Positions 34,301-56,274 are shown, numbered from the whole stretch's first letter. The stretch: 61,520 nucleotides of DNA, filler included, from 6 parts of 6 records of this genome joined end to end with filler, not necessarily neighbours in it, one strand, 5' to 3'. Made by a program: numbers and translations. The notes: generated from the sequence alone by a model not told the origin.

Positions 34301-34400
34301 NNNNNNNNNNNNNNNNNNNNNNNNNNNNNNNNNNNNNNNNNNNNTTAATTAATTAANNNNNNNNNNNNNNNNNNNNNNNNNNNNNNNNNNNNNNNNNNNN
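34301..34400. other. Artificial contig spacer
   Basis: N-run with TTAATTAATTAA. Confidence 0.98.
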
Positions 34401-34536
34401 CTTAGTTACGGTGAGATTGGTGGATGGAGCATACTGGTTCGGACGGAGATTTTACTGTCCTTAATGCCGATGAAAATACCCGATTGGCAAATAGAAGCAC
34501 TGAAACTCCTCTAGCCTGTATCATCTAAACAATAAG

Positions 34537-34565
34537 TTGCCAGTAATTATTTGTTATTGTATAAC
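34537..34565 (+). promoter_or_regulatory. Sigma-70 promoter with overlapping Zur box
   Basis: TTGCCA-N17-TATAAC; palindrome GTTAT-TGT-ATAAC at 34553-34565 covers the -10. Confidence 0.75.
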
Positions 34566-34588
34566 CTCTCGCGTGGGGAGTGTTCAAA

Positions 34589-34903
34589 ATGAACGTTTTG
34601 AAGCAAAAAATAAAAATTAAGAGCCGCATGCATGGTTTAGCTATGATTGCGATCTTTATTTTTGCGCAACTCCTCATTACTTTCCATCATATTGATGAAC
34701 CTCATGTTGCCAATGAAGATAGTGTGGCTGTTGAGTGTGATATCTGTACCGTTTCACCGGGAGCTTTTGATCTTGCTCCACATACATACGCACCAACGGC
34801 ACCAGCTTTAGTAAGAAACATGACGCCCTGCCGTGGTGATACAATACATATCTCTGAGCGAACTTGTTCCGGTTATGCTCGGGCGCCACCTCGCATTCTG
34901 TAA
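34589..34903 (+). CDS. DUF2946-like leader protein (TM, His, CxxC, C-terminal RAPP)
   Basis: GGGGAG RBS; TM ending AQLLITFHH, CDIC, ends YARAPPRIL*. Confidence 0.8.
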   Translation: MNVLKQKIKIKSRMHGLAMIAIFIFAQLLITFHHIDEPHVANEDSVAVECDICTVSPGAFDLAPHTYAPTAPALVRNMTPCRGDTIHISERTCSGYARAPPRIL

Positions 34904-34981
34904 ACACGAAAATCGTCATCAGCTTTTCGCTGGTTCACATAGACAACTCCTGCTTCGTTTCAGCTGCGAGTATGTGTTTGG

Positions 34982-35455
34982 ATGCTAATCATGAATATTG
35001 AAACTGCGCGGCCTGAAGGTCGTAAAACCCTTGTTGTAGACACCGCTCGTCCCGGTAGTTTACCAAAGCTTACAAGAAACCAGAAAATGGTATATAACGC
35101 ATTACGGGACTTGGGCCGTGCTGCTAAAGCATATGAACTGCTTGATATATTGCGGCCAAAAGGCGTTAAAGCAGCACCAACAGTCTATCGTGCTTTGCAT
35201 GAGCTGGAAGAAAAGAGTCTCGTGAAGCATGTGGTGTCTTCCCGAACTTTTTTTGCGTGCCAGCAATCTGAACTTGCCGCAAAACAAAAAGTCGTGCTGT
35301 TGTGCAATGCATGTGGCAAAATCCAGTTTCTTGAGAATAAACCCCTGCTGGCGGCACTAACCACAAATGCTCGTGAAAATGGTTTTACTGTCCGTTCTTA
35401 TCATTTGGAAATTGAGACATCATGCATCAATTGTGATAGAGGGCCGTTATCATGA
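34982..35455 (+). CDS. zur: Fur-family regulator, Zur-like
   Basis: LTRNQ...KAYELLD.LR...AAPTVYRAL, FFAC, CNACG, CINC. Confidence 0.82.
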   Translation: MLIMNIETARPEGRKTLVVDTARPGSLPKLTRNQKMVYNALRDLGRAAKAYELLDILRPKGVKAAPTVYRALHELEEKSLVKHVVSSRTFFACQQSELAAKQKVVLLCNACGKIQFLENKPLLAALTTNARENGFTVRSYHLEIETSCINCDRGPLS

Positions 35456-35853
35456 TCTCAGTTATCAGCTATCATGAGAATCTGGACCGGTTAGGTGTAA
35501 TCGCAGCCAGCATTTGTCTGCTACACTGTGCTGTCATTCCTATTATGCTCATCGTTATGCCTGCCATAGGTACCTATGTGTTTAGTGGTGACGGGTTACA
35601 TTTACCCTTGGTGGTTTTCGCTTCTGCTTTAGGTGCTTATACAATTCTCTTGGGGGTATTGCGCCACGGGAGAAAGGGGCCCGCTATTATGGCGGCTGTT
35701 GGCATTGTTTTACTCTTAACATCTCTAGCGGAAGCACAGCTCGGTCAATTATCAGAGTATCTGGCCAGCTTGGGTGCGCTAACCATGGCGTATGCGCATA
35801 TCAGAAATTTAAGGGCGTCATGTGCATGTTGTCCCTGCGCACCTACACAATAA
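35452..35853 (+). CDS. MerC-domain membrane protein
   Basis: LDRLGVIAASICLLHC...P, four TM, AHIRN; Cys-rich tail. Confidence 0.85.
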   Translation: MISVISYHENLDRLGVIAASICLLHCAVIPIMLIVMPAIGTYVFSGDGLHLPLVVFASALGAYTILLGVLRHGRKGPAIMAAVGIVLLLTSLAEAQLGQLSEYLASLGALTMAYAHIRNLRASCACCPCAPTQ

Positions 35854-35924
35854 AAACAAGATCCGGCAGCGTACCGGGCTTTGTACTGAGCTTGCAATAC
35901 AATCTACCAGCAGCGAGAAATACA

Positions 35925-38015
35925 ATGAGAAAACATGACATGTCGCTCCTTGCGGCAATGGTTTGGCTAATGGCGGTGCCAATAGCAACAGGGCAGGCCC
36001 AAGAAGCCTCTGAGGGCGATAGCACGCAAGCGACATTGGTGGCAGGGCTTGAAAATGCGCAGGTATATCAGCGCAGTTTTTTTGATCAGTTCACACCACA
36101 AACTGCACGCGACATGATTGATCGAGTGCCAGGGTTCACACTTAGTGCAGGCGATGACCTGCGTGGCTTTGGCGGTACTGCAGGTAATGTGCTGATTGAC
36201 GGCGAAAGGCCCTCATCCAAGACGGGCGGCATCGACGACGCGCTTGGGCGCATCCCTGCTAATCAAGTGGCCCGGATCGAGGTTATTCGAGGATCTGCTG
36301 GGTCTGGCGAGGCCGCCGGTCAGTCTGTTGTAGCAAATGTCATTCGCCTAAAACAAGGTTCTGCAGGTAGCTGGGAAGTAAAGTTAGAGCGAGCTGCTGA
36401 CGGTGTTCTAAACCCGCGCGGTGAGCTTACCGTTGTTAGGCAAGTCTCTGGCTGGAAAACATCCACAAAAATAAATGCGTTTTGGGAGAGGTTTCCCCTC
36501 AGCGGCCCCCGCACCCAGTTTGATAGTGCGGGGAGCCTACTGTCATCACAGTTTGAAGATCGCCCTAGCACTTTGACTGAGGCCTTCGTTTCATCCGAGG
36601 CGGAGCGCTCTGCGGCGGGGGGTATGTTATCTCTAACCGGGCGTTTCGGGCGCAGTGCCTTTTTGCCGACTACGGAAAGGTTAGGGTTTGACGGTCGCCT
36701 TCCGGATGAGAATCCTGACGAGCGCTTTTTTATCGACCTCAATAGTGTTTTTTACGAAGGTGAGTTTGGCGCTGATTGGAGTAGGAGCCTTGGTGATTTA
36801 TGGACACTTAAACTGCTGTCTCTTTCTTCTTTTCAAACTTGGGAACAGGAACAATTGGTTTCTACAGAACGGCCCGTAGGAAATCTGGCCTCGGGTTCGA
36901 CCTTCACACGTGAGCAAGATACATTTGAAACCGTGTTAAGGGGGGCGTTTACCAAGTCAGGTTCCAGCCGACTGCGCCCTGAATTTGGCGCCGAGATTGC
37001 CTACAATAGCCTTGATAGTAAATTGTCATTGGAGACCCGCGATGCAGGTGGGGTCAATGCTATTGACCTTCCTGCAGCAGATGTTCTGGTTAAGGAACTT
37101 CGTGGGGAAGCCTATTCGAACCTGATTTGGCAAGTGGGTGATGGGTTATCTTTTGAAACAGGTTTGGCTGCCGAGTTTTCTCAGATTACTGTTTCAGGTG
37201 ATGCTGATAGCCGTCAGTCTTTTTTCTTTGTAAAGCCGTTTGCTACGGCAATCTATGACGTTAAACCCGGGTTTCAATTCAGGTTAGGGTTGCGCCGGAC
37301 GGTTGGGCAGCTCGATTTTAGTGAATTTGCAGCATCTGCCTCGGCTGAGGATGACAGATTACTGGCGGGTAATCCAAACCTTGGCCCAGACCAGACAACG
37401 CGTGCCTCTTTTACTGTGGACTTGAGGTCTGAAAAAAGAGGGGCGATAAACGTTGAATTTTTTCATGAGTGGAGAGATGATCTCATTGAACAGGTCCGTT
37501 TGCCTTCAGGTAGTTTTGGTGCGGCAAATGCCGGCAACGGCCGATTGTGGGGTGTAACTGCGAACGCTAGTGCTCCTCTCGGCCCTATTATCCCGGGTGG
37601 TCTTTTGGAAGTGGAGGCTGATTTTCGTGATTCAATCTTTGCAGACCCGCTTTCCGGTAACGACAGGGACATATCCAATGTGTCCTCACCAACAATGTTT
37701 GCTGAGTTCCGACAAGACTTGCCGGATCAGAAGCTAGCGTGGGGTTTTTCCTACAGGGCAGCTCAAAAGAGGCAGTTCTTCTTCGCAAATGAAATTAGCT
37801 TCATACGCGAAGGAGAACAATGGCGTGCTTTTGTTCAATCGACACACTTGAAAGGTTGGCGTACCACGCTTGAGGTTAGAAGCATAGGAGGTAGGAACCG
37901 TTTTCGTGAACGAACTTTCTTTGAACCAAGTCGTGCAGACAGTTTCTCAGGATCCGAAATCATAGACCGAAGTCGAGGTGCTTTTGTTTCAATAACTATT
38001 GCAGGGCAATTTTAG
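35925..38015 (+). CDS. TonB-dependent receptor
   Basis: Signal peptide, plug (DMIDRVPGF...RIEVIRG), GNPNLGP, terminal Phe. Confidence 0.9.
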   Translation: MRKHDMSLLAAMVWLMAVPIATGQAQEASEGDSTQATLVAGLENAQVYQRSFFDQFTPQTARDMIDRVPGFTLSAGDDLRGFGGTAGNVLIDGERPSSKTGGIDDALGRIPANQVARIEVIRGSAGSGEAAGQSVVANVIRLKQGSAGSWEVKLERAADGVLNPRGELTVVRQVSGWKTSTKINAFWERFPLSGPRTQFDSAGSLLSSQFEDRPSTLTEAFVSSEAERSAAGGMLSLTGRFGRSAFLPTTERLGFDGRLPDENPDERFFIDLNSVFYEGEFGADWSRSLGDLWTLKLLSLSSFQTWEQEQLVSTERPVGNLASGSTFTREQDTFETVLRGAFTKSGSSRLRPEFGAEIAYNSLDSKLSLETRDAGGVNAIDLPAADVLVKELRGEAYSNLIWQVGDGLSFETGLAAEFSQITVSGDADSRQSFFFVKPFATAIYDVKPGFQFRLGLRRTVGQLDFSEFAASASAEDDRLLAGNPNLGPDQTTRASFTVDLRSEKRGAINVEFFHEWRDDLIEQVRLPSGSFGAANAGNGRLWGVTANASAPLGPIIPGGLLEVEADFRDSIFADPLSGNDRDISNVSSPTMFAEFRQDLPDQKLAWGFSYRAAQKRQFFFANEISFIREGEQWRAFVQSTHLKGWRTTLEVRSIGGRNRFRERTFFEPSRADSFSGSEIIDRSRGAFVSITIAGQF

Positions 38016-38076
38016 ATATGAAGCAATTCGTTAACCTAAGAATTTACTTCAGTTTTTGTGATTAAAATGAAGCAAC

Positions 38077-38110
38077 TTGCAAAAATTAGAAAAGTGATAT
38101 AGTAACGTTT
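38077..38110 (+). promoter_or_regulatory. Second putative promoter with Zur box
   Basis: TTGCAA at 38077 followed by AAAGTGATATAGTAACGTTT, similar to the Zur consensus and to the 34553 box. Confidence 0.65.
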
Positions 38111-38112
38111 AT

Positions 38113-38418
38113 ATGGGGAATGCGAGGGGAAATAAAAGCGTTTCTAGAATGCTGGCTTGGTGTTTGGCGGCATTATTTTGTGTGGCGCAATTCCAAATAA
38201 GCACGCATTCCCATGACCAAGACGATTTCAACCTACAGCATGAATGCACCGTCTGCGTAACAGCTAATCATCTTGATGACGCTGATACTCATGAAGCGGC
38301 GTTTATAGTTCAAAGTCAGCCGCCGACAATACCTACACAACAAATAGAAACCCCCATCCTAAAGGCCCTTCTAGCATACCCAAATGTGCGCGGGCCCCCT
38401 ACTACTGAGCATTTATAG
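38113..38418 (+). CDS. DUF2946-like leader protein (TM, HxH, CxxC, C-terminal RGPP)
   Basis: TM ending AQFQISTHSH, HECTVC, ends NVRGPPTTEHL*. Confidence 0.8.
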   Translation: MGNARGNKSVSRMLAWCLAALFCVAQFQISTHSHDQDDFNLQHECTVCVTANHLDDADTHEAAFIVQSQPPTIPTQQIETPILKALLAYPNVRGPPTTEHL

Positions 38419-38542
38419 TCAGAACATCTGCTGAACCCAAGTTCGCGGATCACTGACATAATTTCATAAAAACAACCAAGTTTGTGGCGCAATTCTCGCG
38501 GGAATTGAGCGCCTATGATCTCAATGCTCAGGAATTAGAACC

Positions 38543-40765
38543 ATGAAAACCGGAATTTTTAGTGGTAAATTGTTAAATACAGTTGCGCTTAGCGCCCTTA
38601 TTATTGGTGTTTCATCACAATCAATCGCTCAGAATGAGAAGGATGATACCGACGAAAGCTTGGAAACGATTGTCGTAACGGCAACGCGCACGGCGCGTGA
38701 CACGTTAGATGTCCCGGCTCATGTTACCAACCTTGATATCGAAGTTTTGCGCAATCGCGGTTTTTTTGCGGGCGCTGATGAATTGCGCGGTGAACCTGGT
38801 ATTTTCTTCCGGCGCGGTGAGGGTGATAATGACGAATTTCTTTTAATCAATATTCGCGGCATTACCGGCTCCAGCGGCAATGACCATATTCTTGGCTTGC
38901 TCGACGGCATTCCGCTTATTTCGCCTGATGATGAAGTTTTGCTTGCCGAGGTTCCCTATGCCGCCATTGGCCAGACGGAAGTTGTTCGCGGCCCAATTTC
39001 TGCTCTTTATGGCCGGAGCGGTGTTGCCGGTGCCATTAACTACCGGCTGCGCGACCCGTCTGATGAATTTGGCGTTAGTCTTAGTCTGCGAGGTGGCAGT
39101 TATGGCTTTTTGCGCGGCGAGGCCGTAATTGAAGGCCCTGTTACCGAGGGTGTGAAAGGCCTTGCCATGGTAAGCCGCGAGCACTCTGATGGCTGGCGCG
39201 ATAATAATGAGCGCGATATTCTCACCTTGTTTGGCAACCTAGAGATTGAGCTCTCAGAGGCAACAAGCCTTGAACTTTTTCTAACGTATTATGACCGCTC
39301 CAGCGAGTCCGGCAGCCCGATTCCGCTTTTGCCGGACGGCTCATTGGTGGAAGTTGCAGGTGGCCGGGAGGCCTTTCTTGGCCCACGGCCGCCTAAAAAT
39401 GAGGTTGAAAGTCTCATGGGGGCCGCACGTTTGCGCCATGAAGTCAGTGAAGACTTTGCCCTTACAGCCACCTTCAGTGCCCGCAGCCGGGACACTTTGA
39501 CCAGCTTGAACTTTCTTGACAGTTTCGAGTTTGACCCTGCTAACAACATTATAGGCTTCAACGGTTTCCAATCTCCAAATGAGGGCAATCACTATTTCGG
39601 AGAAGTCACAGCAGAGTGGAACGCAGGGAACCACTCCTTTGTTGCTGGCGTTAGCTATGAACGAGCAAGCCTTACCGAGCGATCACAGTTTACCGGGCAG
39701 AACGGCTTTACATTTGAATGCGGATTCAAATTCTTTGCAATATTAGTTGATTACTCCACCGGTGATATCCTCAATCAGGATCATCCCTGTTTTGTCACCA
39801 ACCAAACAACCTTCTCGGCGGACGCAACAAGCGACTATTTTGGGGCTTTCATCCAAGATGAATGGCAAATTCTCGACCGCCTGACGTTAACCCTTGGATT
39901 ACGCTACGATAGTTTCGAGCGTAACGTTGACTTTGCCTCCCTGCCGCCCTTTGACCAATCGCAGCGGGTAACTGACACCGCAGACCAGCTCACGCCAAAG
40001 GCCTCGCTTGCTTACCGGTTTGAAGACAGCTTGGCCTATTTCTCTTTTGGGCGTGGTTTCAGCTCCAACTTTGGTTCTGTTTTCCTCTATGACCCCACCC
40101 GCTTCAGGCGTGATGTAAAACCTTCCACCCTCGATAGCTTCGAGTGGGGCTGGAAGGGTCGGGCGCTCGATAACCGTCTGCAATATCAATTTGCGTTTTA
40201 TTACATCAATCAACGGGATCGGTTACTTACAACAGCTAACCCCGATGCTGCGGGCGACTTTACCCAGCCCGGTACTCTAGTCACAACCGGCCAGAAATAT
40301 GTCAGCAAAGGGATGGAAGCGAGCTTCGCAATTCGACCTGATGATGCCACGGTTCTTGATATCCGTTACGCTTATATTGACCCTGAGTGGGACGAGAACA
40401 TTATCAATACCTTTGGAGGGCCGCTGGACCTTTCCGGCAATACCCCGCAGGGCGTTCCAGCCCACACCCTTTACCTTGCCGCAGAACGACGCTTTACAGA
40501 CTGGTTCAGTGGTCGCGTATCCTTTGAGTGGTACGATGATTACTTCGTAACCTTGGACAATAGCGTCGAAGGCGGAAGTTATAATCTAGTTAATATGGGC
40601 TTCACGTTAAGTCCCTTTGGAGAAGACGGGCCTCATCTCGATTTAGAAGCAACCAACCTTTTCGATAAAAATTACAATTTCCTCGCTGGTGGTGTGGCAA
40701 ACCCAATTCTCGCAACGCCCGGGGTGCCGTTCAGCTTGTTCGCGACGCTGAGACAGAGATTTTAA
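38543..40765 (+). CDS. TonB-dependent receptor
   Basis: AGGA RBS, signal peptide, TonB box ETIVVTATR, EVVRGPISALYG, LTLGLRYD, NLFDKNY, terminal Phe. Confidence 0.95.
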   Translation: MKTGIFSGKLLNTVALSALIIGVSSQSIAQNEKDDTDESLETIVVTATRTARDTLDVPAHVTNLDIEVLRNRGFFAGADELRGEPGIFFRRGEGDNDEFLLINIRGITGSSGNDHILGLLDGIPLISPDDEVLLAEVPYAAIGQTEVVRGPISALYGRSGVAGAINYRLRDPSDEFGVSLSLRGGSYGFLRGEAVIEGPVTEGVKGLAMVSREHSDGWRDNNERDILTLFGNLEIELSEATSLELFLTYYDRSSESGSPIPLLPDGSLVEVAGGREAFLGPRPPKNEVESLMGAARLRHEVSEDFALTATFSARSRDTLTSLNFLDSFEFDPANNIIGFNGFQSPNEGNHYFGEVTAEWNAGNHSFVAGVSYERASLTERSQFTGQNGFTFECGFKFFAILVDYSTGDILNQDHPCFVTNQTTFSADATSDYFGAFIQDEWQILDRLTLTLGLRYDSFERNVDFASLPPFDQSQRVTDTADQLTPKASLAYRFEDSLAYFSFGRGFSSNFGSVFLYDPTRFRRDVKPSTLDSFEWGWKGRALDNRLQYQFAFYYINQRDRLLTTANPDAAGDFTQPGTLVTTGQKYVSKGMEASFAIRPDDATVLDIRYAYIDPEWDENIINTFGGPLDLSGNTPQGVPAHTLYLAAERRFTDWFSGRVSFEWYDDYFVTLDNSVEGGSYNLVNMGFTLSPFGEDGPHLDLEATNLFDKNYNFLAGGVANPILATPGVPFSLFATLRQRF

Positions 40766-40802: not shown

Positions 40803-41534
40803 ATGCTAAAAACTGATAATCTCACCAAAAAATTTGGTAACAAGCTCGCATTGGATAACCTGAACTTGGTTGTTAACGCGAGGGAAATCGTTTGTTTGTT
40901 GGGCGCTAACGGCGCTGGCAAAACAACGACAATCAATCTTTTTCTGGGCTTTCTTGAGCCCACCTCGGGGGCCGCTTTTGTTGGTGATAAGAATGTGGCG
41001 CAAAATGTTGAAGCGGCCCGAGCCGATCTTGCCTATGTGCCGGAACAGGTAAGCTTATATCCAGTTTTAACGGGTCTTGAAAATCTGGTTTATTTTAACC
41101 GATTGGCGGGTAAAAATGTGGCTGATACTGCAACGCTTCGCACCTATTTTGATCGTGTTGGTCTGGACCAAGGGGCTGCAGATTCTCGAGTAGAGAATTA
41201 TTCCAAAGGTATGCGCCAAAAAGTTGGCCTCGCCATTGCGCTGGCTAAGGGCGCGAAAGCACTTTTGTTGGATGAACCATTGTCGGGTTTAGACCCGAAA
41301 GCCGCGAACGAATTCTGTTCGTTGTTGCGCGCTCTTTCTGATGACGGCACTGCCATATTGATGGCAACCCATGACCTGTTCCGCGCCAAGGAAGTAGGGG
41401 ACCGCATCGGTATTATGAAGGCGGGCCGACTGTTGGATGACCTGCAGGCATCAGAGATAAACCACAACCAGCTTGAGAAAATCTATCTTGATCACATGCA
41501 TGACGGCGGCCCGGCGAGAGGAGAGGCGGCATGA
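40803..41534 (+). CDS. ABC transporter ATP-binding protein (ABC-2 type)
   Basis: GANGAGKTT, YSKGMRQK, LLLDEP, THDL. Confidence 0.95.
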   Translation: MLKTDNLTKKFGNKLALDNLNLVVNAREIVCLLGANGAGKTTTINLFLGFLEPTSGAAFVGDKNVAQNVEAARADLAYVPEQVSLYPVLTGLENLVYFNRLAGKNVADTATLRTYFDRVGLDQGAADSRVENYSKGMRQKVGLAIALAKGAKALLLDEPLSGLDPKAANEFCSLLRALSDDGTAILMATHDLFRAKEVGDRIGIMKAGRLLDDLQASEINHNQLEKIYLDHMHDGGPARGEAA

Positions 41535-42961
41535 TCTCGGCCATTGTTATAAAAGAATGGACTGAGTATCGCCGTGATGGTCGGGTAATCAGTGTTCTTA
41601 CTCTTCTCATGCTGTTGGTGTCTGTGGGACTGGTGACCGGCTGGGCAGGGCTTTCTGAACAACAGCGGCAAGCTCAGTCAGCGCAACGAGACGATCAGGA
41701 AGTATTTCTCAAACAAGGGGAAAAGAACCCTCATTCCGCGGCTCATTTCGGTCGCATAGCCTATAAGCCCATGCCGCCACTTTCGGTTTTTGATCCCGGT
41801 GCAACGCCGTATTTGGGTCAGGCGATTTGGCTGGAGGCGCACGCTCAAGACCCTGCCATGTTTCGGCCAGCTGAGGACGCACCGGACCTGAGGCGGCTTG
41901 CAGACCTAAGTGTGGCTGGTGTGCTTAGCTTGCTTCTACCGCTTTTGGTGTTTTTAACAGGGTATGGTGCTTTTGCCGGTGAGCGCGAACGTGGAACTTT
42001 GCGTTTAGCTGTGAGCTCCGGGTCTGCTCTGAAGAATTTATTCACTGGCAAGCTTACAGCGGTTGCTATGATAGGTGTCGGCGTTGCATTTGTTGCAATC
42101 ACTGTATCAGCCATCATGGCCATGTCAGCGCCGGTGGGGGTTTCTAGCAGTGAAATTTTGCTTAGAAGTTTGGGCCTCGTTCTTGGGTATACCCTATACG
42201 CTATTGCCTTTGCCGCTTTTGCGCTTTTAGTGTCAGCGCGAACAAAAAGGGCCACGTCTGCGCTTCTTGTTCTGCTCGGCCTCTGGGCGCTTTCTGTTGT
42301 CGTTATGCCCCGCGTGGCGGCAACGGTTTCCGAGCATCTCTATCCTGTCCCTGATAGTGAGACATTTTGGTCGGAAACCTATTCGACCATTCGGGCAAAC
42401 AGACCTGACCGGGATTCAGCAGAATATAAAGCTGCAGAAAGATTGGTGCTCAGTCGTGCCCTTGGTCGTGAGGTAAGTGACGAAGAGGTTGCTGGAATGG
42501 AACTTAATCGCAGCGGGTTAAGGCTTGAGGTCTCTGAAGTGATTGATGCCAATGCCTTTAGTGCAGCATACGAGCGACTGTATGCCGCTTACCAGCATCA
42601 GAAAGAAGTGCGCCGCGCGCTGTCCGTCTTTTCACCAGCTATTTTGCTACAGCATTTTTCTTCAGGCCTTTCCGGCACTGACATTGCCGCTCATAAGCAT
42701 TTTGCGCTCGAAGCTGAAAAGCAGCGCAATGTAATCGTTCGCGAGATGAATGAAGATATGATGCTCAAAGGAGTTGGCCAAAGCTTTTCTTACTTGGCTG
42801 ACGCAGATTTCTGGGAAAGCATCCCGGACTTTCAGCACCAGCCTCCGCCTTTGTCATATGCAGTGCGCTCCGTGCTTTGGGACTTTGTTTTGCTCGGTTT
42901 GTGGGCAGTGCTTGCTCTTTGGTTTGCCTGGCGGGCAGCCCGTAAACAACAAATAATATGA
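41531..42961 (+). CDS. ABC-2 permease, DUF3526-like
   Basis: KNPHSAAHFG, IWLEAH, ERERGTLR, LSGTD. Confidence 0.85.
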   Translation: MISAIVIKEWTEYRRDGRVISVLTLLMLLVSVGLVTGWAGLSEQQRQAQSAQRDDQEVFLKQGEKNPHSAAHFGRIAYKPMPPLSVFDPGATPYLGQAIWLEAHAQDPAMFRPAEDAPDLRRLADLSVAGVLSLLLPLLVFLTGYGAFAGERERGTLRLAVSSGSALKNLFTGKLTAVAMIGVGVAFVAITVSAIMAMSAPVGVSSSEILLRSLGLVLGYTLYAIAFAAFALLVSARTKRATSALLVLLGLWALSVVVMPRVAATVSEHLYPVPDSETFWSETYSTIRANRPDRDSAEYKAAERLVLSRALGREVSDEEVAGMELNRSGLRLEVSEVIDANAFSAAYERLYAAYQHQKEVRRALSVFSPAILLQHFSSGLSGTDIAAHKHFALEAEKQRNVIVREMNEDMMLKGVGQSFSYLADADFWESIPDFQHQPPPLSYAVRSVLWDFVLLGLWAVLALWFAWRAARKQQII

Positions 42962-44400
42962 GGCTTGAGATGACTTTATCGCACATAATTTCTCATGAAT
43001 GGAAAACGCGGCTGGGCCGTCCGGCTGGGCTTTTCAGTCTAATGCTGTTTGCGGGGCTGCTTATATACGGCGCTGTTAGCGGCCGTATGGAACGGGATGC
43101 GCGTCTTGAGGCTATAGCCGCTCATGAAGAGCAAATTGCTTCTGCCATGGAAAGTTGGCTTGCGAATGCACGCCTTCTGGAGGAGAAAGGCGCGGATGCA
43201 GATGTCCCGGCTTGGAGTGGATCTGCCTTAGATGTAACCTTCGCTTCTGCTTTGCCGCCTGGCCCGCTCGGTGATTTTGCCATTGGTCAATCCGATATTT
43301 TACCCGGCCTTGGGAGCTTGTCTCTCTGGTCTCCAGATATTCGACTGTTTTCCAAATATGAATTTGAAGACCCCATCGCGCTGGCGCTGGGTGGGTTTGA
43401 TCTGGGCAAAGTTGTTCTTCTAGTTCTGCCATTGCTGTTGATTGTTCTTTCCTTCGACATCCTTTCAGCAGAACGCGATGCAAACCGCCTTGGCCTCACC
43501 TTGGCTCAGGGCGCTAAACTGCGGTCGTTGTTTTGGAAAAGGTTGTTCATTAGAGGGCTTTTTGTTTTCGGTGTCACTTTCCTAATAATACTTGCGGCTT
43601 TTTTGTTTCAAACCGGCAATGCAAGCTTATTTGACCGGCTGCCGTATTTTGCCCTTTGGGGGGTAGGTGCCTCCCTGTATGTGCTTTTCTGGATTGGCGT
43701 AATTGCTTTCGTTGCATCACGCAACCGTGGCGGCGAAGTGAACGCTATTTTGCTGCTTATCTCGTGGGCTGGTTTTACCTTGATCGTTCCGGCTGGTATT
43801 GCAGCAGTTGCGGAAAGCGTTTATCCGGCACCCTCGCGTCTTGCTTATCTGGCCGAGGCACGAGAAGCGGAGAATGAAACAAAGCTCAGAGAAGCAGATA
43901 TTGCCAATGAGTTCATCCTTGATCACCCTGAAATGCTGGTGAATGAGACAAGCGAAATACCGGCCTTTGTAAAGTCCGCATTTATCGTGACCTCAACCGT
44001 GGACGAAGCCACAAAACCGCTTCTGGCAGAATTTGAGGCGGAAGCTTTGAAGCGGGATGCGTCACTAAATTGGATGCGGTTTTTGTCTCCTGCCATCATT
44101 ACGCATACCTTGTTTAATGATGTTGCCGGGGCAGATTCCGGGCGACACAAACGCTATATGAAGTCGGCTCGTGCATTCAAGGCCTCATACGGCGAAAAGG
44201 CAGGCCCATATGTCATTGCAGGCAATAGGTTACCAACAGAAGAGTTCGCCTCGCTGCCAACTTTTGAATTTGATGAGGAAGGCATCGGTGCCGTTATAAA
44301 CCGACATTTGGGGGCGTTGATTTTTCTCGTTTTTGCCGCAGGGCTTTTGTTGTTTTTCGCTGATCGCCGCTTAACAGAAATTAGAGGGCCAAATGATTGA
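42958..44400 (+). CDS. ABC-2 permease, DUF3526-like (second paralog)
   Basis: FAIGQSD, GGFDL...LPLLLI...LSAERD, YPAPSR, DHPE. Confidence 0.85.
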   Translation: MRLEMTLSHIISHEWKTRLGRPAGLFSLMLFAGLLIYGAVSGRMERDARLEAIAAHEEQIASAMESWLANARLLEEKGADADVPAWSGSALDVTFASALPPGPLGDFAIGQSDILPGLGSLSLWSPDIRLFSKYEFEDPIALALGGFDLGKVVLLVLPLLLIVLSFDILSAERDANRLGLTLAQGAKLRSLFWKRLFIRGLFVFGVTFLIILAAFLFQTGNASLFDRLPYFALWGVGASLYVLFWIGVIAFVASRNRGGEVNAILLLISWAGFTLIVPAGIAAVAESVYPAPSRLAYLAEAREAENETKLREADIANEFILDHPEMLVNETSEIPAFVKSAFIVTSTVDEATKPLLAEFEAEALKRDASLNWMRFLSPAIITHTLFNDVAGADSGRHKRYMKSARAFKASYGEKAGPYVIAGNRLPTEEFASLPTFEFDEEGIGAVINRHLGALIFLVFAAGLLLFFADRRLTEIRGPND

Positions 44401-44492: not shown

Positions 44493-45764
44493 ATGGAAGC
44501 TCAAATGGAGAAGTCAGCACAGAGAACAACATCACGAATACAAGTTTTAGATTTTATTCGTGGTGTTGCGATCCTGGGAATGCTTGTGGCTAATGTGCCA
44601 TGGCATGCGGGCGATACTATGTCGCGTGTTCTCGAACCAGATTTTTGGAGTGTAAATGCGTGGCTTAGCCAATACCTCATTTTTGATCAGCGGTTTATGC
44701 CAATTTTTTGCATGTTATTTGGTGCCAGTGTTTTTCTGCTGACCGGCGGGAGAGATGTTACTAAAGTTTTCAAGGGATATTATCTGCGGCGAATGTTGGT
44801 TTTGCTGTTACTAGGGGTAACTCACGCCTATTTTCTGTGGCCTGGCGACATACTCATTACATATGCTATTTGCGGACCATTTTTATTGTTGTTTTATCGA
44901 GCGCCCGTTAGATGGCTGCTTACTGTCGGTTTATCTTTCAAAGGGATAGACCTGATCTTCGGGGAATGGCCGGAGTTATATTTCGCAACCATTGATGCAT
45001 GGCTATTTTCCTGGGTCAAATTCGGTGATGCCCCTTCAACAATAGCAGCAGCCTATGCTGGTACTTACAGTGACCTGTTTGCCTACAATGTTTGGCGAAA
45101 TCAATTTCTACAATGGACAGCGTTACCGTATTTCCGCATGTGGAATGCGCTTGGTTTCATGCTGATTGGTATGGCGCTATTTAAGATGGGTATATTGCAA
45201 GGAAGGAAAGGCCAACAGTTTTACAAAAAGTTTGCAACAATCAGCCTGTTTATTAGCCTGCCCCTTGTCCTTTACGGTGTTTTTGCGAGAATTGGAGTAA
45301 ATTCAACCGTTGGCCCTTATCTCGGGTTTACTACAGAATTGCCGTTGCAAAATATTACGTTTCGCACCGGCTGTTCTGTGATGTCGTTTACGATTTTGGC
45401 GATGCTTCATACTATATATCCATATGTGTGTGGTTATATTCGTGGCTTGGTAGAAGCCGTTGGAAGGATGGCTCTCACTAATTATGTTTTTCACTCCATA
45501 TTCTTTTTGATCGTTTTCCATGTTTTTGTCCCAAGCCTTTTCGACACGCTTGATCACGATATGCTTTTGTTACTTGTCATGGTGGTTTGGGCCATTCAGC
45601 TATTCGGGAGCCATCTATGGCTTAAATACTTCAAACAAGGCCCTTTGGAAGCGCTTTGGCGTTCATTAACAGGCACCAAAAAACGACATCAACACTCTGG
45701 AGAAAAACAGTGCGCTGATCCGCAAGCAAAATTGGGACATCAAAAAGATGGAGCGACACAATGA
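44493..45764 (+). CDS. DUF418 (YeiB-like) membrane protein
   Basis: RIQVLDFIRGVAILG, FCMLFG, GDILITYA, VGRMALTNY, QGPLEALWRSLT. Confidence 0.9.
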   Translation: MEAQMEKSAQRTTSRIQVLDFIRGVAILGMLVANVPWHAGDTMSRVLEPDFWSVNAWLSQYLIFDQRFMPIFCMLFGASVFLLTGGRDVTKVFKGYYLRRMLVLLLLGVTHAYFLWPGDILITYAICGPFLLLFYRAPVRWLLTVGLSFKGIDLIFGEWPELYFATIDAWLFSWVKFGDAPSTIAAAYAGTYSDLFAYNVWRNQFLQWTALPYFRMWNALGFMLIGMALFKMGILQGRKGQQFYKKFATISLFISLPLVLYGVFARIGVNSTVGPYLGFTTELPLQNITFRTGCSVMSFTILAMLHTIYPYVCGYIRGLVEAVGRMALTNYVFHSIFFLIVFHVFVPSLFDTLDHDMLLLLVMVVWAIQLFGSHLWLKYFKQGPLEALWRSLTGTKKRHQHSGEKQCADPQAKLGHQKDGATQ

Positions 45765-46783: not shown

Positions 46784-47261
46784 ATGTATTTGTCGAGGTG
46801 GTTTCCAAAAGTAGGTAGAGCAACGCTTCCTATATCTGCGAGCGGATTTGGGATTACGATTGCATTGGCGGCAATTCTAATGATTGCCAGTTATATCGCC
46901 AGTGAGGTGGGGTATGATACATGGATTGAAGACCATGAAGTTACTGCTCATGTAAGCTCACTATTTCCAAATAGCGGTACGCGGCTCGCCAGAGTGCCGG
47001 CACCCGTGTCTGATGCGCTGCCAGCGTTTGCACCTGACGACATAGTCGATGTTGCTCGATTACAAGTGCGTACCTTAAGTGTGCGGAAAGATGATGCCGT
47101 TTTCAATGAAGTGGTGTTTTGGGCTGACCCAAACTTTTTTAATGTTGTCCGGATACCAGTATTACACGGCGAGGATAGCCCCAGGCTTGATGGTTCTAAT
47201 ACCGTGATTACGGCCACGGCTGCTCTTAAGTATTTTGGTCAAACTGATGTGATCGGTGAAA
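46784..47261 (+). CDS. MacB/FtsX-like ABC permease (partial)
   Basis: EVGYDTWI, WADPNFF, VITATAALKYFG.TDVIG. Confidence 0.8.
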
Positions 47262-47361
47262 NNNNNNNNNNNNNNNNNNNNNNNNNNNNNNNNNNNNNNN
47301 NNNNNTTAATTAATTAANNNNNNNNNNNNNNNNNNNNNNNNNNNNNNNNNNNNNNNNNNNN
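47262..47361. other. Artificial contig spacer
   Basis: N-run with TTAATTAATTAA. Confidence 0.98.
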
Positions 47362-47938
47362 CCCGGACGGCCCCGCCGGTCTTTCCCCGCGCGCCGCGCA
47401 GGCCGCCGCCGGGATTGTCGCGCAGATGCCCGCCCTCACCGCGCTGACCGCCGGTTCGGTCGCCAGCTACCACCGCCTGACCCCGCACCGCTGGAGCGCG
47501 GCCTACGCCAACCTCGCCGTGCAGGACCGTGAGGCGGGCCTGCGCATCTGCCCCGTCACCGCGACGGAGCCAGAGCGCATCGCGCGACAGTTCAACTACG
47601 AATACCGCGCCGCCGATGCCACCGCCTCTCCGATGCTGGCGCTTTCGGCGCTGATCCATGCCGCCAGCGCCGGGGTCGAGGCCGCCCTGCCCTGCCCCGA
47701 ACCCACCACCGGCGACCTGTCAGAGCACTCGGACGAGGCCCTGCGCGCCCGTGGCATCGCCCCCCTGCCCCGGTCTCTGGCCGAGGCGCTGAAACGGATG
47801 CAGGCCGCCCCCGCGCTGGAACAGGCCTATGGCGCGGCTTTCCTGTCGCTTTATGCCGCCCACAAGGGCTTCGAGGCCACCGAGGTCGCCAGCCTCGCGG
47901 TTCCGGACATGCTCAGCCGTTACGCAGCCACCTACTGA
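47362..47938 (+). CDS. Glutamine synthetase family protein, 3' part (gamma-glutamyl ligase-like)
   Basis: SYHRLTPHRWS, DREAGLRI, EYRAADATASP, LPRSLAEAL. Confidence 0.88.
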
Positions 47939-55756: not shown

Positions 55757-56174
55757 CTACGGCAAGCTGGCCGTCCTGCACGGGATCGACTTCGACGTCG
55801 ACCGGGGCGAAGTGGTGTCGCTGGTCGGCCCCTCGGGCTCGGGCAAGTCCACCGTGCTGCGCGCGCTGGTCGGGCTGACGCCGGTCACCGGCGGCACCAT
55901 CGAGGTCGACGGCACCCGCATCGACTACGCCGCGCCCCGCGCGGTCAAGGCGGCGCGCGACCGCATGGCCATCGTCTTTCAGCAGTACAACCTGTTCCAG
56001 AACATGACCGTGCTACGCAACGTGACGCTGGCGCCGCTGAAGGTGCAGGGCCGCAAGCGCACAGAGGTCGAGGCCGAGGCCATGGACCTGCTGAAACTGG
56101 TCGGCATGGACCACAAGGCGCACAGCTACCCGGACGAGCTCTCCGGCGGCCAGCAGCAGCGCGTCGCCATCGCC
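55722..56174 (+). CDS. Amino acid ABC ATP-binding protein (partial)
   Basis: GGAG RBS + TTG start, GPSGSGKST, VFQQYNLF, LSGGQQQRVAIA. Confidence 0.93.
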
Positions 56175-56274
56175 NNNNNNNNNNNNNNNNNNNNNNNNNN
56201 NNNNNNNNNNNNNNNNNNTTAATTAATTAANNNNNNNNNNNNNNNNNNNNNNNNNNNNNNNNNNNNNNNNNNNN
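56175..56274. other. Artificial contig spacer
   Basis: N-run with TTAATTAATTAA. Confidence 0.98.

Follow-up and report, generated by a model that had tools for sequence, protein, structure and literature searches.

Two candidate zinc-linked leader peptides of a divergent DUF2946/CruR clade at the head of adjacent operons with Zur-type boxes

The leader ORFs and their family

The DNA analysed here is a window of 61,520 nucleotides (nt), in which a contig of roughly 50% G+C, starting at position 34401, carries two short open reading frames (ORFs). Each is the first gene of an operon, with its downstream genes on the same strand and a long spacer (78 and 124 nt, respectively) between it and the next gene. 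We consider it reasonably probable that both are regulatory leaders of a zinc-linked sister clade of DUF2946/CruR, lying behind promoters with Zur-type operators and heading metal-uptake operons. The two leaders are:

34589–34903, plus strand: leader ORF1, 104 amino acids (aa); ATG start, with an alternative in-frame GTG at 34580
38113–38418, plus strand: leader ORF2, 101 aa (translation of the window)

All the protein features that a first-pass annotation of this DNA had read from the two ORFs, namely a transmembrane segment, AQxxxxxH, a His cluster, ECxxC, a Pro-rich linker and R(A/G)PP near the stop, are present in both. The putative export-type or transmembrane segment, recognized as a basic N-terminus with a 15-residue hydrophobic stretch on the Kyte-Doolittle scale, comprises five K/R followed by residues 16–30 in ORF1 (Kyte-Doolittle 2.56) and three K/R followed by residues 13–27 in ORF2 (2.06). 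ORF1 further has AQLLITFH, His at 33, 34 and 39, and ECDIC at 49–53 (C50/C53; CxxC codons 34736–34747), the counterparts in ORF2 being AQFQISTH, His at 32, 34 and 43, and ECTVC at 44–48 (C45/C48; CxxC codons 38245–38256). The linker from CxxC to R(A/G)PP is the same in the two, with 44 residues including five Pro, and leads to RAPP at 98–101 (34880–34891), RIL and the stop in ORF1, and to RGPP at 93–96 (38389–38400), TTEHL and the stop in ORF2. Identity between the two peptides is as low as 28% (over 60 residues), and their common layout is therefore not an artefact of recent duplication. Homologues of ORF1 are the protein P0001 (56% identity) and L003:1226-1555, and orthologues of ORF2 lie at L002:5567-5869 and L003:4834-5139, L002 belonging to an uncultured Kordiimonas sp. 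assembly and L003 to a Sphingomonadales metagenome-assembled genome. A further match to the regular expression, on the minus strand at 55945–56226 (...GRAPP), lies in DNA of 67% G+C beside a masked run and was taken as chance.

A profile of seven aligned orthologous leaders (A3), searched against 1.84 billion representative proteins, recovers 326 of them at E ≤ 1e-3, the best 150 of which are 73–148 aa long. These 150 were inspected together with P0001, and 150 of the 151 relatives keep both CxxC and R[AGS]PP near the C-terminus, a family conservation that rules out chance ORFs; the one exception, P0085, ends in RASP. Among the 150, the motif takes the form RAPP in 121, RGPP in 20 and RSPP in 9, is followed by 1–10 residues, and is separated from CxxC by 43 (42 proteins), 44 (75), 45 (20), 46 (9), 47 (2) or 48 (2) residues. 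In the alignment of these relatives (A4, 150 rows), H33, C50, C53, R98 and P101 show no variation, with H39 and P100 almost as constant. Among 401 genomes sampled from the class of the Kordiimonas genome G002, which itself has four leaders of the clade, the A4 profile found matches in 32; one unpublished genome was excluded. From the 35 places listed we took 20, omitting the L002 locus, one place at a contig edge and 13 weaker ones (E 1.0e-7 to 9.9e-4). A leader ending in R(A/G)PP is present at all 20, with CxxC in 15, and as a single-Cys variant with several His/Glu and RAPP, and without CxxC, in the other five (L088, L089, L094, L095 and L097, at about 400–960 in leader orientation).

The prototype of DUF2946 (PF11162) is CruR (Bp2923) of Bordetella pertussis, the upstream ORF (uORF) of cruR-bfrG(crtA)-bp2921, which, like our leaders, comes first in a TonB-receptor operon. 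What the first-pass annotation had taken as established about CruR is indeed in print, as a DUF2946 uORF whose CxxC and RAPP mediate copper control of a TonB receptor (PMC9426467). The kinship with DUF2946 that it had suggested for the leaders does not appear as a direct Pfam match of either ORF, and emerges from their relatives and from profile–profile comparison. PF11162 is matched by 67 of the 150 A4 members at E ≤ 0.1 (best 4.5e-6), and hhalign aligns A4 with a canonical DUF2946 profile (A7, 26 sequences) at 95.2% probability (E 2.7e-8); the 62 aligned columns span CxxC through RAPP, and no alignment extends into the N-terminal halves. The canonical set came from 401 sampled genomes of the same phylum (62 over cut-off, one unpublished excluded); its 30 best members are 111–174 aa long and have CGYCxLL, Met/His-rich stretches, a spacer mostly of 45 (6) or 46 (15) residues, and RAPP in 25. 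CruR and the two ORFs are alike in the N-terminal export-type segment (putative in the ORFs), the CxxC, the R-A/G-P-P shortly before the stop, the constant spacer length (45 residues in CruR, 44 in ORF1 and ORF2), the long gap before the next gene and the homologous C-terminal module. From the PF11162 matches and the profile–profile probability, the leaders therefore form a divergent sister clade of CruR. By these comparisons the device is a divergent CruR relative, and the two ORFs are homologous to CruR in the sensor-to-arrest module, within a clade that the Pfam model misses: in G002, PF11162 finds nothing at E ≤ 1e-5 despite the four leaders there. A word-based protein search gave no match for ORF2 and one for ORF1, with neither ORF's own sequence among those listed. 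As this search misses both ORFs and the Pfam model misses the clade, the latter is likely absent from regulon maps, and its leaders may go uncalled by gene finders.

Zinc-type neighbours and Zur-type boxes

To the 20 related loci we added L008 and scanned the first two to four ORFs downstream (52 of 108 candidate ORFs; 10 against NCBIfam). Of the 20 related loci, 15 have zinc-family genes downstream of the leader and not one has a copper-family gene:

L078: Zur-like regulator, MerC and PepSY_TM
L079: ZigA (605 bits, cut-off 600) and DUF1826
L080, L081, L086, L087: receptors with ZnuD as best match (E 1e-70 to 1e-109), followed in L081 by a ZIP transporter
L083, L085, L089, L090, L092, L093, L094, L095, L097: ZnuA and/or ABC-3 genes
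L082, L084, L091, L096: untyped receptors
L088: alkaline phosphatase

In eight of the nine ZnuA/ABC-3 loci (L083, L085, L089, L090, L093, L094, L095 and L097; L092 was not resolved), the first gene after the leader codes for a protein of 430–490 aa, which has no Pfam match at E ≤ 1e-5 and, in the four copies scanned, no NCBIfam match. Behind canonical DUF2946 genes, TonB-copper receptors score above cut-off in 5 of the 16 cases scanned. The leader clade thus differs from canonical DUF2946 in its zinc-type downstream genes and also in its ligand residues, which are His/Asp/Glu together with CxxC as opposed to Met/His-rich stretches. Met-rich stretches favour Cu(I), and Cys2His2 favours Zn(II).

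In Caulobacter, Zur recognizes sites of the pattern TGTTAT-N3-ATAACA, which at znuK, znuL and znuGHI overlap the −10 element (PMC4176598). The consensus from these sites (12 specified positions of a 15-mer) was used for scoring, and the following elements precede the two leaders:

34552–34566, unstranded: Zur-type operator 1, TGTTATTGTATAACC, 11/12 against the Caulobacter-type consensus
38077–38106, unstranded: promoter-like stretch with TTGCAA (38077–38082), a 15-nt spacer and TATAGT (38098–38103), conserved in three genomes
38094–38106, unstranded: Zur-type box 2, GTGATATAGTAAC, 8/12 against the 15-mer

Box 1 is the only match with at most one mismatch in the whole 61.5-kb window, where matches with at most three number 13 against 8.4 expected. 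As in the Caulobacter regulon, it overlaps a −10-like element (TATAAC, 34560–34565), and a Shine-Dalgarno sequence, GGGGAG, follows at 34575–34580. A box scoring 10/12 stands at the equivalent place before the leaders of L003, L078 and L079, and, in all, boxes of at least 10/12 precede 6 of 21 leaders (ORF1 of the window, ORF1 of L003, L078, L079, L085 and L092). Box 2, which as a strict 15-mer lies beyond three mismatches, does not vary among three genomes, but conservation would be expected there in any case because of the −10 that it overlaps. It is one mismatch away from GTTATATAGTAAC, a sequence with two copies at the G003 TonB-ExbD promoter and one ahead of phoX in G002, and stands 9 nt before the ATG of ORF2, like the strong boxes of L085 and L092. 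The proposal that both transcription units begin behind a promoter with a Zur box is of unequal strength on its two sides: box 1 is by its sequence a sound putative operator and box 2 a plausible one, and the leader promoters, neither of which is called by a simple sigma-70 scan, are placed by position and conservation.

In several relatives the box and −10 lie only 6–9 nt before the leader ATG (L079, about 640–660; L085 and L092); because of this nearness, the mRNAs of ORF2 and of several relatives' leaders may be leaderless or nearly so.

The motif occurs in G002 with at most one mismatch 11 times, against 5 for the reversed control. The sites include leader promoters, a TonB/DUF3450-ExbB cluster, and the perfect TGTTATTTTATAACA box before a receptor that is 41% identical over its full length to receptor 1 of the window; the motif also stands before the ZigA-operon leader. 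A Zur-type box, GGTTACTATATAACT (L145, G002:C3:215152-215164), immediately precedes the gene of a PhoX-family alkaline phosphatase, beside a divergent DUF418 gene; this box before phoX may reflect a switch to a phosphatase without zinc need.

Further parallels are offered by Caulobacter crescentus, where ZnuK and ZnuGHI are Zur-repressed and, compared by description, correspond in domain make-up (TonB receptor, ABC ATPase, two ABC-2 permeases) to operon 2 of the window. Its CC2720 is a DUF2946 gene, the first of the Zur-controlled (Zur-activated) czrCBA operon; it is listed there only as hypothetical and precedes efflux genes, whereas the window leaders precede uptake genes. Unlike the window receptors, znuK has no leader reported before it in that account (PMC4176598). 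In Pseudomonas, a table row has PA0433/PA0434 rising with zinc-starvation genes.

The zinc link that the first-pass annotation had inferred for the leaders thus gains strong comparative support, both from the zinc-type operons and from the Zur-type boxes. Of the alternatives, the one that survives best, unlikely as we hold it, is that the leaders sense copper or another thiophilic metal and Zur senses zinc, in which case two metals would truly be read, in place of zinc being checked twice. In CruR it is CxxC that senses copper (PMC9426467), the C-terminal module is the one that hhalign finds homologous to canonical DUF2946, PepSY_TM, a partner of copper-type CruR operons, follows the leader, Zur and MerC genes of L078, and MerC-family proteins carry soft metals. 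Against this stand the lack of a copper-family gene in all 20 related loci and the lack in the clade of the Met-rich stretches of canonical DUF2946, in place of which there are invariant His plus Asp/Glu. Moreover, the five relatives without the second Cys keep His/Glu and RAPP, and four of them precede ZnuA/ZnuB-type genes (the fifth, L088, having the alkaline phosphatase), which argues that the ligand set, and not CxxC as such, is what matters. On gene neighbourhood and ligand chemistry, which are its only grounds, zinc is the best-supported reading, and the leaders of the clade are probably zinc-sensing stalling switches.

A proposed arrest mechanism and its alternatives

In CruR, arrest at RAPP keeps Rho off, and copper acting via CxxC releases the arrest, whereupon transcription terminates (PMC9426467). 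Translation of CruR in vitro halts when the P and A sites are occupied by the two RAPP proline codons, and among arrest motifs RAPP and RGPP are the most robust (PMC12992588). The leaders differ from cruR, the promoter of which is said to have no Fur site (PMC9426467), in their Zur-type operator. CutF of Rhodobacter capsulatus, which is DUF2946-like, is like the leaders a nascent exported peptide with a Cys motif and a C-terminal Pro-rich stall site; its stall melts a stem-loop shielding the next ribosome-binding site (preprint 10.1101/2025.02.05.636593), and a comparable helix can be drawn for ORF2. However, CutF turns on a detoxifying enzyme at high copper, the opposite of the logic that an uptake operon needs, and its motif is a PPP repeat dependent on EF-P, unlike the R(A/G)PP of the leaders (same preprint). 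SecM of Escherichia coli (RAGP, secA control) likewise has an R-A-G/P-P arrest near the end of a uORF, which lays bare the ribosome-binding site of the next gene and ends when the nascent chain is pulled (PMC9426467, PMC12992588). Its sequence relation to the leaders is confined to the arrest motif, and the force comes from the Sec machinery as opposed to the metal-induced fold proposed for the leaders.

Accordingly, we posit a two-layered control in which the Zur-type boxes would, judging from the DNA sequence, serve as a first, transcriptional zinc check. By homology with CruR, a ribosome translating the leader would then arrest at R(A/G)PP, with the His-x5/6-His...Cys-x2-Cys module, 44 residues upstream, just out of the exit tunnel. 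When zinc is absent the arrest would persist and the downstream genes would stay on, either by the stalled ribosome holding open a helix between the last codons of the leader and the next ribosome-binding site (route a), by Rho being blocked at the C-rich end of the leader (route b), or by both. When zinc binds the nascent Cys2His2 module, folding would pull the chain, release the arrest and turn the uptake genes off. We infer both the arrest and the metal response of ORF1 and ORF2; the 44-residue spacer, by which the Cys2His2 module would have only just emerged from the tunnel at arrest, fits a force-driven release. The logic of CruR fits an uptake operon, because without metal the arrest persists and the genes stay on, and one leader may gate a regulator together with transporters, since operon 1 carries a Zur paralogue. 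CruR-type peptides are reported to be poorly structured. The broader proposition, that these are widespread nascent-chain zinc sensors in which Cys2His2 folds on zinc, pulls the chain from the R(A/G)PP arrest and shuts uptake operons after transcription has started, making them the first protein-based co-translational zinc switch, which also gates a Zur paralogue in a nested loop, we rate as an even chance.

Features that could serve either output route are found in the spacers:

34904–34981, plus strand: ORF1 spacer, 78 nt, with hairpins at ~34919–34934 and ~34946–34971 kept in three genomes
38405–38531, plus strand: structured spacer of ORF2, from its last codons to the ribosome-binding site of receptor 2

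In the ORF1 spacer, 9 of 19 consensus pairs of the hairpins are changed on both sides (three sequences only), and in the single-sequence fold the RAPP codons pair with TGCGAG (34965–34970) and with GTGTTTGG (34974–34981), abutting the next start codon. In ORF2, a 9-bp helix, kept in the three-genome consensus fold, joins the last codons, CTGAGCATT (38405–38413), to AATGCTCAG (38523–38531). Its 3′ arm is invariant in three genomes and overlaps the AGGAA Shine-Dalgarno sequence (38530–38534) of receptor 2; the helix encloses hairpins at 38426–38451 and 38487–38513 and begins ~11 nt 3′ of the P-site Pro codon, a distance within reach of the footprint of a stalled ribosome. As to route b, the 3′ third of ORF2 (38285–38427) is C-rich and G-poor (C 32–37%, G 13–15%; contig background C 23.4%, G 25.9%), more mildly so in ORF1. 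In this it is reminiscent of the rut region mapped in cruR; Pro codons by themselves could, however, be enough to produce the bias. A terminator scan of both spacers found none, and a duplex search of leader ends against 260 nt downstream with shuffled controls was uninformative (z mostly −2 to +1). The RNA features for either route are not statistically strong.

Several results weigh against the reading of the ORFs as zinc-linked CruR-type leaders. With Pfam (E ≤ 0.1), neither ORF1 nor ORF2 matches any family, DUF2946 included, and neither has an NCBIfam match. The receptors with ZnuD as best match score far under the ZnuD model cut-off of 950, and neither receptor of the window is ZnuD-like by NCBIfam; the ZnuA and ABC-3 families also include Mn and Fe importers, and CxxC is a copper ligand set too. 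Box 2, at 8/12, is within chance for a 280-nt stretch and not significant alone. The folds of ORF1 (minimum free energy −31.9 kcal/mol, z = −0.63) and ORF2 (−44.4 kcal/mol, z = −1.32) are no better than those of shuffles, and none of the 32 pairs of the ORF2 consensus fold is changed on both sides. Across the 20 loci, pairing of the leader end with the next start beats 95% of control windows in only 4 and 90% in 9, in a test that is lenient or biased because the CCU-CCN Pro-Pro codons resemble an anti-Shine-Dalgarno sequence.

Next in standing after the copper alternative, and improbable in our estimate, is a real arrest not set by metal, that is, a constitutive or secretion-monitoring pause in the style of SecM or MifM that couples translation of the leader to downstream expression. 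It would account for the N-terminal export-type hydrophobic segment of both peptides and accords with the enrichment of RAPP/RGPP peptides in secreted small proteins (PMC12992588) and with the requirement of CutF stalling for co-translational secretion (preprint 10.1101/2025.02.05.636593); yet if no ligand were bound, there would be little reason for His and Cys to stay invariant and at a constant distance from where the ribosome stops, and the signal peptide is dispensable in CruR (PMC9426467). The weakest alternative, by a narrow margin and about as improbable, has the ORFs as small exported metal-binding proteins (a periplasmic zinc chaperone or receptor partner) with a C-terminal motif incidental to regulation, as might be suggested by their conservation as proteins with a putative export signal and by CutF having first been taken for a copper chaperone (PMC9426467), against which proteomes show strong avoidance of RAPP/RGPP everywhere but close to the ends of small uORFs (PMC12992588), the motif lies at most 10 residues from the stop in all relatives but P0085, and the leaders come first in their operons, ahead of structured spacers.

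The prevailing view is that Zur, acting on transcription, governs bacterial zinc uptake almost entirely. If the zinc-leader reading is true, zinc uptake would gain a rapid level of control after transcription through an arrest peptide that responds to zinc, one arrest module (fixed spacer plus RAPP) would have been re-fitted with different ligand sets for different metals, and the leaders would offer a compact, testable system for force-released translation arrest. Particular to the window are two paralogous leaders on adjacent operons, with a Zur paralogue behind one of them. In the literature on DUF2946/CruR, arrest peptides and Zur, we found no zinc-linked CruR-like leader described. Zinc, Zur, ABC and MerC are absent from the text of PMC9426467 as neighbours, and the main text of the 2025 survey of RAPP/RGPP uORFs (PMC12992588), which names TonB receptors, YcnI, PCuAC and PepSY with such uORFs, never mentions zinc, although the figures or supplements of both could list such neighbours. 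The CruR study remarks in its discussion that riboswitches are not known for either copper or zinc (PMC9426467).

The operons and their contig

The masked N runs of the window (one, with TTAATTAATTAA, at 34301–34400) and the steps in its G+C content (about 54, 68, 62, 50, 67 and 51%) indicate that separate contigs have been strung together in it, and these may derive from more than one organism. The leader locus is absent from the nearest genome, G001 (31% of sampled words common with the window), in which a search for DUF2946 gave only a sub-threshold match; G001 is kin of other contigs in the window. Two DNA-type metagenome runs contain part of the stretch, and no RNA run is listed for it. 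Operon 1 consists of box 1, leader ORF1, a Fur-family gene, a MerC-family gene and TonB-dependent receptor 1, and operon 2 of box 2, leader ORF2, receptor 2, an ABC ATPase and two ABC-2/DUF3526 permeases, all on the plus strand:

34982–35455, plus strand: Fur-family regulator (Zur paralogue), Pfam FUR 8.1e-08
35452–35853, plus strand: MerC-family membrane protein, PF03203 7.9e-20, with a Cys-rich C-terminus, CACCPC
35925–38015, plus strand: TonB-dependent receptor 1, Pfam Plug and barrel domains
38543–40765, plus strand: TonB-dependent receptor 2, Pfam Plug and barrel domains
40803–41534, plus strand: ABC ATPase, Pfam ABC_tran
41531–42961, plus strand: first ABC-2/DUF3526 permease, Pfam ABC2_membrane_2 and DUF3526
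42958–44400, plus strand: second ABC-2/DUF3526 permease, Pfam DUF3526

The Fur-family gene of operon 1 has as its best NCBIfam match Zur PRK11639 (1.9e-15, 57 bits; cut-off 167) and is 33% identical to a better Zur candidate of G002 (128.6 bits). As the Fur-type set of this Kordiimonas genome comprises one Fur, that better candidate and the paralogue of the leader operon, the gene in the window is a Zur paralogue and probably not the main Zur. A comparison of the Zur-like genes at 34982–35455 of the window, L078:967-1458 and L105:1459-1992 (minus strand) shows the type behind leader 1 to be divergent, scoring 57–64 bits to the Zur model versus 128.6 bits for the other Kordiimonas gene; it keeps two CxxC pairs and has few His where the other Zur candidate has His.

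The order of leader, Fur-like gene and MerC gene recurs in L003 and L078. In these and in the window, the MerC-family protein with the CACCPC tail is paired with the Zur paralogue, always behind ORF1-type leaders, and the product of 35452–35853 is a candidate for metal import across the inner membrane. Receptor 2 is 86% identical to its counterpart in the uncultured Kordiimonas sp. assembly (L002) and 95% to that in the Sphingomonadales genome (L003), its best NCBIfam match being a TonB-siderophore subfamily, under cut-off. The succession of receptor, ABC ATPase and two ABC-2 permeases is repeated in L008. A DUF418 gene, like that beside phoX in G002, follows operon 2 at 44493–45764, and beyond it, at 46784–47938, lie a truncated ORF of a MacB-type periplasmic domain and a truncated glutamine-synthetase C-terminal ORF, which are probably cut at another contig join.

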